Virus record (IMG/VR): IMGVR_UViG_2657245131_000016
DNA: 8,928 bases
Direction: 5' to 3' (one strand)
Source: a virus
Lineage: Duplodnaviria > Heunggongvirae > Uroviricota > Caudoviricetes
Shown one piece after another: positions 5,066 to 6,361 of this stretch (position 1 is the stretch's first letter; each line of letters begins with the position of its first letter). A model generated the notes under the pieces. That model was given only the letters and a program-made list of their open reading frames with translations, had not been told where the DNA came from and did not search any database. A program made the translations under genes and the position numbers.

Positions 5066-5291
5066 CGCGAGTGCGTGTAACTTTTGATGTCATTCCCGTA
5101 GAAACACCGGACAAATTTTCGCTGACAGGTCATGCAGAAGGTATAAATCTGCAGATTATGGACAATTACGGATATCCGGCAAGAGCCGGAAAAAGCATGC
5201 CGCCTCTAATTCTCAGTGGAAGATGGACTTGATTATACTCATTGCATTGTCAGAAATAGTTATCCATTAAAGGCTGGCTATTCCAAACAGG

Positions 5292-5319
5292 ATGTTGATT
5301 ACAAAAATGTAATCAACAT
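5292..5319. promoter_or_regulatory. perfect 28-bp palindrome (12-bp arms, 4-bp spacer) upstream of the AcfC-like gene; candidate operator
   Basis: ATGTTGATTACA aaaa TGTAATCAACAT: the arms are exact reverse complements. It lies in the AT-rich region about 165 bp upstream of the gene start at 5484. A candidate -10 hexamer TATAAT occurs at 5419-5424 and another at 5346-5351. Confidence 0.45.
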
Positions 5320-5483
5320 GTAAGGTTTATACTCTTCAATATGCGTATAATTTTCCTTATTTTGTTAACTTTAAATAACAAGCTATGCACGAGGTAAAGT
5401 CGGATAAGTTTATCTGGATATAATATATATTATTTGTAGTGTTTATAACTTTATTTCATGATAACCAATAAAAGGAGTTTTTT

Positions 5484-6242
5484 ATGAGGAACATAATGGC
5501 AGGTTTTTTAATATTCCTGTCTTCTGCTGCTTATGCTGATATCAATCTGTATGGTCCTGGTGGCCCGCATACAGCCTTGCTTGATGCAGCCAAACTTTAT
5601 GCCGAAAAAACAGGTATTATAGTGAACGTTCATTACGGCCCACAGAACAAATGGAATGAAGATGCCAAAAAAAATGCAGATATCTTGTTTGGCGCATCAG
5701 AACAATCTGCTCTGGCTATCATTCGGGACCATAAAGACAGCTTCAGTGAAAAAGATATTCAGCCTCTTTATCTGCGAAAAAGTATTTTACTGGTAAAGAA
5801 AGGTAATCCTAAAAATATCCGGAGTATTGACGACCTGACCAGACCTGGGATTGGCGTAATTGTTAATGATGGTGGTGGTACCAGTAATACATCAGGCACT
5901 GGCGTCTGGGAAGATATTGCCGGACGTAAAGGGAATATAGAAACTGTCGCCGCAATCCGAAAAAATATTATTTTATATGCGCCCAATAGCGGAACTGCAC
6001 GTAAGGCTCTTGAGAATCAGCCTGGAGCAGATGTCTGGATAACCTGGGCTGACTGGGCAGCCAGTAATCCAGAAATTGGTGATGTCGTGGAAATAGCGCC
6101 AGACTACGTGATATGGCGTGATATGAACATTACAGTACGTCAGGATGCAAATGATGAAACCCGTCGATTTGCAGAATGGCTACAAACCGATGAAGCGGCG
6201 CCTGCATTCAAAAAATATGGCTGGACCAGGAAAGGCACTTGA
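5484..6242 (+). CDS. AcfC/PEB3-family periplasmic substrate-binding protein (accessory colonization factor AcfC-like), secreted
   Basis: 252 aa with a strong AAGGAG Shine-Dalgarno 6 nt upstream. Signal peptide MRNIMAGFLIFLSSAAYA, then a mature N-terminus DINLYGPGGPH and motifs KKNADILFGASEQSALAI, LVKKGNPKNI, VNDGGGTSNTSGTGVWEDIAGR and KKYGW, which match my recollection of Campylobacter PEB3 and Vibrio AcfC. A hand count of the first 60 nt gives about 37% GC against about 70% in a 60-nt sample of the P-like gene. Confidence 0.85.
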   Translation: MRNIMAGFLIFLSSAAYADINLYGPGGPHTALLDAAKLYAEKTGIIVNVHYGPQNKWNEDAKKNADILFGASEQSALAIIRDHKDSFSEKDIQPLYLRKSILLVKKGNPKNIRSIDDLTRPGIGVIVNDGGGTSNTSGTGVWEDIAGRKGNIETVAAIRKNIILYAPNSGTARKALENQPGADVWITWADWAASNPEIGDVVEIAPDYVIWRDMNITVRQDANDETRRFAEWLQTDEAAPAFKKYGWTRKGT

Positions 6243-6243
6243 C

Positions 6244-6274
6244 ATCCTCGTCCTTCAGGACGTGGATTCTTTTT
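6244..6274 (+). terminator. rho-independent terminator after the AcfC-like gene
   Basis: Stem ATCCTCGTCC (6244-6253), loop TTCA, stem GGACGTGGAT (6258-6267) with one mismatch, followed by TCTTTTT, immediately after the stop codon at 6240-6242. Confidence 0.6.
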
Positions 6275-6361
6275 CCGGATGCCGCGCCAGCGGCATGTAG
6301 GGGCAGCTCACAAAACGGAAAAAATTGTACGCTAAGCCTCGCCAGGTGAACTGAATTCATT

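Follow-up and report, generated by a model that had tools for sequence, protein, structure and literature searches.

The gene at the centre of the DNA analysed here is paa (= adfO), the adherence-associated gene of EHEC and EPEC, carried as cargo by a prophage of the OI-57/CP-933O type at ompW, a reading to which we assign a probability of about 0.9. The window, i.e. the complete stretch of 8,928 nucleotides under study (IMG/VR record IMGVR_UViG_2657245131_000016), is a degraded O121:H19 version of the ompW Qin-like lambdoid prophage (OI-57/CP-933O/PPompW). It is 100% identical over its whole length to DNA of strain 2014C-4423, and its positions 5230-6290 are 100% identical to ten O121/O103 E. 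coli chromosomes (RM8352 and nine more), in which RefSeq labels the gene 'paa: AcfC family adhesin Paa' (WP_001449026.1). PPompW prophage records in GenBank use the label 'Paa/adherence factor AdfO'. As the sequence is identical, the identity as paa is not realistically refutable. It has been described before that OI-57/CP-933O, inserted in ompW also in O121:H19, has adfO(paa) adjoining ckf, a hok homologue (PMC9729726). The paa cassette is therefore genuine, yet already known, and its occurrence in O121:H19 adds no new biology.

The open reading frame for a 252-aa product that an earlier note had proposed for this stretch is present exactly as claimed (Table 1). paa was found in 611 of 5426 complete E. 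coli genomes, an intact reading frame of at least 99% identity is present in 565 records, and the pathotype spread of the gene tracks attaching and effacing (A/E) and ETEC strains. The window copy and Paa/AdfO of EPEC/EHEC (Z2053 on OI-57/CP-933O; PPompW) are the same gene: copies from O157, O26, O111 and O145 and from PPompW phage records are 99.7-99.8% identical to it, and the named loci have the same neighbours, i.e. the DUF1627 gene upstream and hokD/ckf downstream. The O121 prophage itself is heavily degraded: it contains IS elements, its DUF968 gene is frameshifted, and the terminase is represented by a fragment. In the window the decay goes further than in known OI-57/PPompW, with ends of IS600 and IS3 and a fusion of DUF968 to a terminase fragment; paa itself is no different. 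paa/adfO is a routine marker in virulence typing of STEC, EPEC and ETEC, and OI-57 is taken as a signature for STEC of high pathogenicity.

Table 1. Features in and around the paa-containing block (positions refer to the window)
Feature	Position	Strand	Remarks
Variable (cargo) block	4595-6385 (about)	+	between conserved DUF1627 gene and sok/hokD locus
Small hypothetical ORF, 54 aa	4621-4785	+	left edge of block; RefSeq WP_122368318.1
Remnant of a dead chaperone-usher fimbrial subunit gene	4826-5282	+	RefSeq pseudogene
AT-rich upstream region, presumed regulatory	5233-5483	+	27% GC; about 72% conserved in plasmid copy
1.02-kb paa unit (upstream region, gene, hairpins)	5280-6300	+	recurs with same ends on plasmids
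Palindrome TTGATTACAAAAATGTAATCAA	5295-5316	.	5' edge of paa unit; read from sequence
Shine-Dalgarno AGGAG	5473-5477	+	6 nt before ATG; kept in plasmid copy
paa (= adfO) CDS	5484-6242	+	252 aa, ATG start; codons 1-18 (5484-5537) are the predicted signal peptide; AcfC/PEB3-family binding protein
Two hairpins 3' of stop codon	6241-6296	+	6241-6269 followed by U-run (terminator-like); second 6279-6296
Tn3-family (Tn21-like) terminal inverted repeat remnant, GGGGCAGCTCACAAAACGGAAAAAATTGTACGCTAAG...	6300-6347	+	outer end toward paa
sok/hokD (= ckf) type I toxin-antitoxin locus	6431-6733	+	Rfam sok 6431-6580, 103.9 bits; Pfam HOK_GEF 2.9e-23

A variable slot in a Qin-like early region

The earlier note had placed the gene in the early region of a Qin-like prophage, between the replication module and the hok locus. 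Both statements agree with our analysis. Immunity genes of the dicA/dicC type, dicB, ydfC, ydfD, hokD, rem and ydfU-like genes are all present, and paa resides between an upstream replication module (DnaT-like O, lambda-P-like and DUF1627 genes) and sok/hokD, with RefSeq hokD (6578-6733) as the conserved right-hand neighbour of the block. The paa-less relative elppa9 (L005) is homologous to the window up to about 4595 and again from about 6385, and other E. coli matches resume at 6402-6412. Both elppa9 and a further paa-less relative (L006) hold other genes at the paa position. Among related Qin-like prophages, the content of the slot is DUF977/ead/HNH genes in one strain and relBE in K-12. 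K-12 Qin shares the backbone and carries flxA, ydfV and relB-relE at the position taken up in the window by the fimbrial remnant, paa and the Tn3 end; in agreement with the note, relB-relE lie directly upstream of hokD in K-12. The notion of a variable cargo slot is also borne out by numbers: paa is found at 618 places, the DUF1627 gene at 5783 and the hok-rem segment at 11197, so that the flanking genes occur at about 10-20 times more places.

The deviating base composition claimed for the gene proved real but moderate. paa has 43.9% GC and a GC3 of 34.8%, while nine pooled phage genes have 51.0% GC and a GC3 of 50.5% (Fisher p = 4e-6 for GC3). The rem gene is likewise AT-rich (41.8% GC, GC3 35.6%) and paa is thus not unique in the window. 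In 553 genomes at least 80% of the window is found at one place, and the arrangement is therefore fixed within paa-positive lineages, as it would be if paa were a conserved core gene of this prophage family with host-like composition, the reading that the earlier note had set against its own. The probability of this is practically nil, since close Qin-like relatives share the same replication and hok-rem-DUF968 genes and have other content at the paa position, the place counts and GC3 values of paa and the phage genes differ as given above, and the paa unit also occurs on plasmids; the paa-less relatives and the place counts already refute it. What we find instead is an insertion of deviant base composition between conserved phage genes that is absent from close relatives, the pattern of a moron. 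paa is most probably a lysogenic-conversion gene that has the replication genes on one side and the hok/Q region on the other in LEE-positive EHEC/EPEC lineages.

Mosaic make-up of the block and plasmid copies of paa

Sequence comparison shows the block to be a mosaic of a dead fimbrial fragment, the paa unit with its plasmid-matching ends and a Tn3-family end. The 54-aa reading frame at 4621-4785 yields no match in Pfam; its region has weak DNA similarity (about 68%) to plasmid genes annotated as 'DNA-binding protein'. The fimbrial remnant suffers from deletions of 10 bp and 5 bp and an in-frame TAG, and both of its ends are missing. Its two open reading frames did not match anything in Pfam, and its identification is based on 86% DNA identity to the gene for WP_001297837.1, which is intact and belongs to a fimbrial operon of the ETEC plasmid pTW10573_90.4k; its product matches Pfam Fimbrial (PF00419) at 1.9e-6. 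On the other side of paa, the terminal repeat remnant matches Tn3-family transposons of many plasmids at their tnpA-proximal ends (83-95%), and in L007 it can be aligned with the end of a Tn3-family tnpA that is intact. Neither a partner inverted repeat nor tnpA was found in the window, and an intact Tn3-family transposon with paa as passenger was rejected, as a single repeat remnant is a scar.

Plasmid copies from E. coli and E. albertii match the window from 5280/5290 to 6297/6302 at 85-89%, and the Salmonella plasmid copy matches 5471-6235 only. The E. coli and E. albertii alleles thus share the 1.02-kb unit and its ends with the window, AT-rich upstream region, Shine-Dalgarno sequence and second hairpin included. 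The plasmid alleles of porcine ETEC, E. albertii and Salmonella are labelled 'substrate-binding domain-containing protein' (e.g. WP_001257942.1) and have about 86-89% DNA identity to paa in the window. They are situated amid IS91, Tn3 and IncFII replication genes, whereas paa in the window is surrounded by phage genes.

The block neighbours of paa are dead fragments in a heavily degraded prophage, and it is conceivable that paa, like the fimbrial pseudogene and the Tn3 end, is a decaying passenger devoid of current function. We consider this highly improbable, given that the reading frame is intact and so widely conserved at 99% identity or more, and that the ETEC plasmid allele keeps both Shine-Dalgarno sequence and signal peptide. 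Comparison with the latter allele (93% amino-acid identity) gave a dN/dS of 0.07, pointing at strong purifying selection on paa.

The block may have reached the phage as a plasmid-type mosaic made up of fimbrial remnant, paa unit and Tn3-family end, and the insertion structure would then be a concrete trace of the entry of a plasmid-type adherence gene into a lambdoid prophage. We tentatively combine two proposals, at odds that fall somewhat short of even for the pair: that paa came in such a plasmid-type mosaic and not singly, and that Paa is no adhesin but an orphan anion sensor in the periplasm with an output to chemotaxis or signalling. If true, the first would be a documented case of an adherence gene passing from plasmid to prophage, and the fixed ends of the paa unit would suggest a mode of mobility so far unrecognised. 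The second, if true, would make the 'adhesin' label used in STEC virulence typing mechanistically wrong.

Expression signals around paa

An AT-rich upstream region, a strong Shine-Dalgarno sequence and an own terminator had been claimed for the cassette, and corresponding elements were recovered. The 250-bp stretch of lowest GC content in the window begins at 5266. The ETEC plasmid copy contains the core of the 5'-edge palindrome, ATTACAAAAATGTAATCAA, without any change. An FNR site was considered for this palindrome (TTGAT-N12-ATCAA) and rejected, because the spacer is unlike that of the FNR consensus, which is 4 nt. A sigma-70 consensus scan revealed no acceptable site on the + strand within 5298-5483. 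Over 4600-6800 the scan gave as many matches as expected by chance, with a single one on the + strand, at 5210-5239 within the fimbrial remnant. TATAAT is seen by eye in the AT-rich region at 5346-5351 and 5419-5424, in both cases without an acceptable -35 element, and no promoter was assigned.

Downstream of the gene, the first hairpin consists of a core stem at 6249-6262, extended to 6241-6269, and is followed by UUCUUUUU; the second has the sequence ATGCCGC-GCCA-GCGGCAT. Jointly, the two fold at -29.7 kcal/mol (z = -3.1). The plasmid copy keeps the second hairpin, while the first is partly deleted. A scan for the terminator consensus performs by itself at chance rate (2 found, 1.8 expected), so that it is the placement of the terminator-like hairpin and U-run 7 nt 3' of the stop codon that carries the weight for a terminator.

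In a lysogen, transcription would start in the AT-rich region upstream of paa and stop at the gene's own terminator. Since the consensus scan identified no promoter, we infer such autonomous expression from the literature and the conserved upstream region. Published mutant phenotypes and qRT-PCR from O157 strains with cryptic prophage likewise imply that paa is expressed in lysogens.

Paa as a binding protein of the AcfC/PEB3 family

The assignment to the AcfC/PEB3 family, proposed earlier from the letters of the sequence, is strongly supported by both solved structures. In a phmmer search of PDB, residues 11-248 of the 252 residues of Paa align with PEB3 (E 1.2e-81, 52.5% identity) and with AcfC (E 3.5e-81, 51.3% identity). 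Pfam SBP_bac_11 (PF13531) matches at 5.5e-34 and 118.3 bits, as compared to a cut-off of 25, over profile positions 1-226 of 227. A signal peptide had also been claimed and its features are present: the N-terminus MRNIMAGFLIFLSSAAYA, followed after the cleavage point by DINLYGPGG, combines R2 with a hydrophobic core that peaks at 2.8 on the Kyte-Doolittle scale (9-mer) and with the cleavage site A-Y-A. The Sec signal peptide of 18 residues is a heuristic call made on core and AxA site. In the alignment, the predicted start of mature Paa falls on the first residues of the PEB3 chains used for crystallisation, and the mature protein would have about 25.8 kDa. Cysteine is absent from the whole protein, which therefore has no lipobox and is not a lipoprotein.

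These features bear on the question of whether Paa is a genuine surface-exposed adhesin that touches host cells directly. Annotation and literature speak for it by using the labels 'AcfC family adhesin' and 'adherence factor AdfO', and so does the finding, as far as it is conveyed by reviews, that paa/adfO mutants have reduced adherence and A/E lesions; an adfO mutant is cited as adhering less to HeLa cells (PMC8565820, citing Ho 2008, Batisson 2003). However, Paa is a soluble SBP_bac_11 domain with a plain Sec signal and has neither lipobox nor Cys, beta-barrel or anchoring domain. For AcfC, its closest homologue among characterised proteins, a periplasmic location, binding of heparin, chondroitin sulfate and mucin and an effect on mucin chemotaxis are reported, and it showed no adhesin activity (PMC5976639). 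The literature is split, with Paa and PEB3 being termed adhesins and AcfC a periplasmic non-adhesin. PEB3, moreover, is by now regarded as a transport protein that binds metabolites. We therefore regard a direct adhesin as unlikely, and an even call is warranted for Paa being a soluble periplasmic or released anion-binding receptor and not a classical anchored adhesin.

A purely nutritional role is also conceivable, with Paa as the binding component of a sulfate/molybdate-type ABC importer that would use a host permease. Weak similarity to sulfate-binding proteins (PDB 1sbp 3.5e-4, SubI 1.2e-4) and hits of the NCBIfam sulfate/thiosulfate/ModA models point in this direction, but the latter reach just 22.6, 21.5, 19.0, 17.7 and 18.3 bits, i.e. 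18-23 bits, and lie far below the curated cut-offs of 288, 155.5, 308, 470 and 62.5. Genes for an ABC permease or ATPase are present neither in the window and the prophage locus nor beside the plasmid copy, and the distribution of paa follows the A/E and ETEC pathotypes. Membership in ModA/Sbp/CysP importers was rejected on account of the missed cut-offs and the lack of partner genes, and a nutritional function apart from virulence appears very unlikely.

As an anion-binding receptor, exported Paa would bind an anionic ligand by analogy with its homologues, for which sulfated glycans and mucin (AcfC) and 3-phosphoglycerate and other phosphates (PEB3) have been described. In line with the published paa/adfO mutants, anion binding by Paa may contribute to early adherence and A/E-lesion formation. 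A sensor role in chemotaxis or signalling has been proposed for AcfC. The V. cholerae protein (PDB 4jb7) has 51% identity to Paa over the full mature length and shares fold family, signal-peptide position and the SNTSGT-WED loop. Like Paa, it is a colonisation-associated orphan binding protein encoded on a mobile island, which is the TCP island (VPI-1) for AcfC and a prophage for Paa. C. jejuni PEB3 (PDB 2hxw, 3fir, 3fjg) belongs to the same fold family and has been described as a transporter component for 3-phosphoglycerate. It is a chromosomally encoded, N-glycosylated antigen binding 3-phosphoglycerate, whereas Paa is prophage-borne.

The SNTSGTG(V)WED loop common to PEB3 and AcfC, which we take to contact the anion in PEB3, is identical in Paa (GGGTSNTSGTGVWED). 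PEB3 K135 (K in PDB 3fjg, E in 3fir) is replaced by T in Paa and by V in AcfC, and the ligand specificity of Paa may therefore differ from that of PEB3. The DFNVS segment of PEB3 is aligned with DSFSE in Paa.

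Identity and possible function of the paa product

The feature under study is the long-known and already described paa (= adfO) gene of OI-57/CP-933O. The earlier note, made from sequence alone, had given it as a 252-aa ORF for a secreted AcfC/PEB3-family protein, and the ORF listing of the window returns an ORF with the same coordinates, which starts with ATG. Paa covers the full profile of Pfam SBP_bac_11 (118 bits), and in a phmmer search against PDB its residues 11-248 match Campylobacter jejuni PEB3 (1.2e-81, 52.5% identity) and Vibrio cholerae AcfC (3.5e-81, 51.3% identity), with sulfate-binding proteins trailing far behind at about 1e-4. 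Affiliation with Sbp, CysP or ModA was rejected, the NCBIfam models scoring 18-23 bits against cut-offs of 62-470. On the basis of PDB matches in the 1e-81 range, the Pfam match and the NCBIfam scores below cut-off, Paa is thus assigned by sequence to the AcfC/PEB3 group as proposed, rather than being counted among classical ABC binding proteins. Position 135 of PEB3 is K in 3fjg and E in 3fir, whereas the aligned residue in Paa is T, and the ligand of Paa therefore need not equal that of PEB3.

The predicted strong Shine-Dalgarno sequence is present, with six T residues between AGGAG and the paa ATG as read and indexed in the sequence, and so is the predicted signal peptide: the N-terminus, MRNIMAGFLIFLSSAAYA/DINLYGPGG, combines an A-Y-A site with a basic residue and with a hydrophobic core that peaks at 2.8 (Kyte-Doolittle, 9-mers). 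Cysteine is absent from the whole protein sequence and Paa is therefore not a lipoprotein. The gene product presents itself as a conserved and selected, soluble, solute-binding-type protein, predicted to be exported and without a transporter partner.

A review describes reduced adherence and fewer A/E lesions for paa/adfO mutants (PMC8565820). AcfC, a periplasmic protein, has sulfated glycans and mucin as ligands and influences chemotaxis to mucin; it showed no adhesin behaviour (PMC5976639). PEB3 is currently seen as a protein that binds metabolites of the 3-phosphoglycerate type. On our preferred reading, Paa would act as a Sec-exported anion-binding receptor, and the adherence phenotype would then rest on ligand binding and not on an anchored adhesive structure. 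We give this reading about even odds against that of Paa as a direct adhesin, the function named in the RefSeq label 'paa: AcfC family adhesin Paa' at all loci found in complete Escherichia coli genomes. Expression of paa in the lysogen is implied by the published phenotypes together with qRT-PCR in O157 strains carrying the cryptic prophage.

Structure and composition of the inserted block

Our sole addition to what is known of paa is the structure of the inserted block, which alignments delimit by break points near 4595 and 6385. ETEC plasmid pTW10573_90.4k carries the intact counterpart of the fimbrial remnant (Pfam Fimbrial) as part of a chaperone-usher operon. Plasmid copies of the paa unit occur in porcine ETEC, other E. 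coli and E. albertii, with homology ending sharply on both sides, while a Salmonella plasmid copy matches 5471-6235 only (87.5%). At 6300, exactly where the homology between the paa unit and its plasmid copies stops, GGGGCAGCTCACAAAACGGAAAAAATTGTACGCTAAG begins. Tn3-family transposons of many plasmids have matching terminal inverted repeats on their tnpA-proximal side, and the alignment of this sequence with the end of an intact tnpA at another locus (L007) extends through position 6347. Neither a partner inverted repeat nor tnpA was found within the window, and the transposon end is therefore a scar. Together, the fimbrial fragment, paa unit and transposon end resemble plasmid DNA that the phage has captured, and we infer transfer of paa from plasmid to phage.

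Features of the window and their positions
Feature	Position	Remarks
IS600 piece	1-297	left boundary of window
Gene after cro/dicC-like gene	1839-2390	Pfam YdaT_toxin borderline (21.2 bits, cut-off 21); RefSeq 'toxin YdaT family protein' or 'hypothetical protein', strain-dependent
Fimbrial-subunit gene remnant, dead	4826-5282	86% identity to intact fimbrial subunit gene; 10-bp and 5-bp deletions, in-frame TAG, both ends missing
paa unit, discrete	5280-6300	plasmid copies match 5280/5290 to 6297/6302 at 85-89%
Perfect palindrome TTGATTACAAAAATGTAATCAA	5295-5316	5' edge of paa unit, ~170 bp before start codon
Shine-Dalgarno AGGAG	5473-5477	
paa ORF	5484-6242 (+)	252 aa, ATG start
First hairpin 3' of paa	6249-6262 (core), 6241-6269 (extended)	followed by U-run; 7 bases past stop codon
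Second hairpin 3' of paa	6279-6296	perfect 7-bp stem
Tn3-family (Tn21-like) terminal inverted repeat remnant, GGGGCAGCTCACAAAACGGAAAAAATTGTACGCTAAG	6300-6347	outer end toward paa
Perfect 24-bp palindrome CCGATATGGGAATTCCCATATCGG	6362-6385	in ~37 bp between Tn3 end and resumed phage homology
sok/hokD (ckf) type I toxin-antitoxin locus, complete	6431-6733	
sok	6431-6580	Rfam, 103.9 bits
hokD	6578-6733	inside longer mok-frame ORF 6521-6733
DUF968 gene (ydfU-like), frameshifted	7561-8806	fused to terminase large-subunit fragment
IS3-family element	8794-8928	right boundary of window
Rfam isrC-like match	8870-8928	within right IS3-family element, clipped by window end

Compared with one ETEC plasmid allele, Paa shows 93% protein identity (dS = 0.42, dN = 0.03), and the non-coding parts up- and downstream are about 72-75% identical. 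The resulting dN/dS of 0.07 argues for strong purifying selection in both settings. The region upstream of paa is AT-rich, as had been noticed; over 250 bp it has the highest AT content in the window (27% GC at 5233-5483; the lowest-GC 250-bp stretch begins at 5266). A promoter scan of this upstream region gave no convincing match. The palindrome at 5295-5316, whose core is kept in the ETEC plasmid copy, could be an operator. The proposed terminator corresponds to a terminator-like hairpin with U-run; the 70-nt stretch with both hairpins folds at -29.7 kcal/mol (z = -3.1). A clear difference in base composition had also been claimed. GC3 is 34.8% in paa (GC 43.9%) and 50.5% in nine pooled phage genes (GC 51.0%; GC3 Fisher p = 4e-6); the deviation is real, though of moderate size, and the AT content of rem is similar to that of paa.

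Prophage context, cargo position and distribution

The gene order, taken from the annotated O121 RM8352 locus and from PPompW in its intact form, runs from exonuclease, dicB and ydfC through a dicA/dicC-type switch to YdaT-like, DnaT-like O, P and DUF1627 genes, the fimbrial pseudogene, paa, hokD, rem and ydfU-like DUF968; intact PPompW also has rusA and Q. This order identifies the window as a Qin-like early region and bears out the placement of paa between replication module and hok. In EDL933, OI-57 is prophage CP-933O and adfO (paa, Z2053) adjoins ckf (Z2054, hok homologue); all O121:H19 strains carry a 30-31 kb homologue in ompW that also encodes NleA, NleF and EspM1 (PMC9729726; PMC8565820). 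In agreement, nleA lies downstream in the O121 locus.

The close relative elppa9 shares the immunity, replication and hok-rem-DUF968 genes, whereas its interval between DUF1627 and hokD holds, among others, DUF977, DUF4406, ead/Ea22-like and HNH genes instead of paa. In K-12 Qin, flxA, ydfV and, as stated in the earlier note, relB-relE directly precede hokD. By megablast, segment 5230-6290 is present in 611 of 5426 complete E. coli genomes (618 places), and both flanks are far more widespread (DUF1627 gene, 5783 places in 2770 genomes; hok-rem segment, 11197 in 4721), in line with a variable cargo slot. Since the similarity to AcfC/PEB3 is significant and paa is not a core prophage gene of host-like composition, the original interpretation stands.

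O121:H19 and O103 strains carry the segment at 100% identity, the listed O157:H7, O26, O111 and O145 strains at 99.8%. Strain 2014C-4423 matches all 8928 bp of the window at 100% identity, and 553 genomes carry 80% or more of the window in one place. The O121 copy of the prophage is degraded. Of the genes of intact PPompW, it lacks rusA, Q, those for lysis and most of those for morphogenesis. In E. coli O145 RM9154-C1, the whole paa-bearing prophage region (99.8% identity) lies on NZ_CP031350.1 (161515-179299), a record of 187 kb with the label of a non-mobilizable plasmid; it could represent a phage-plasmid or else an artefact of assembly or labelling.
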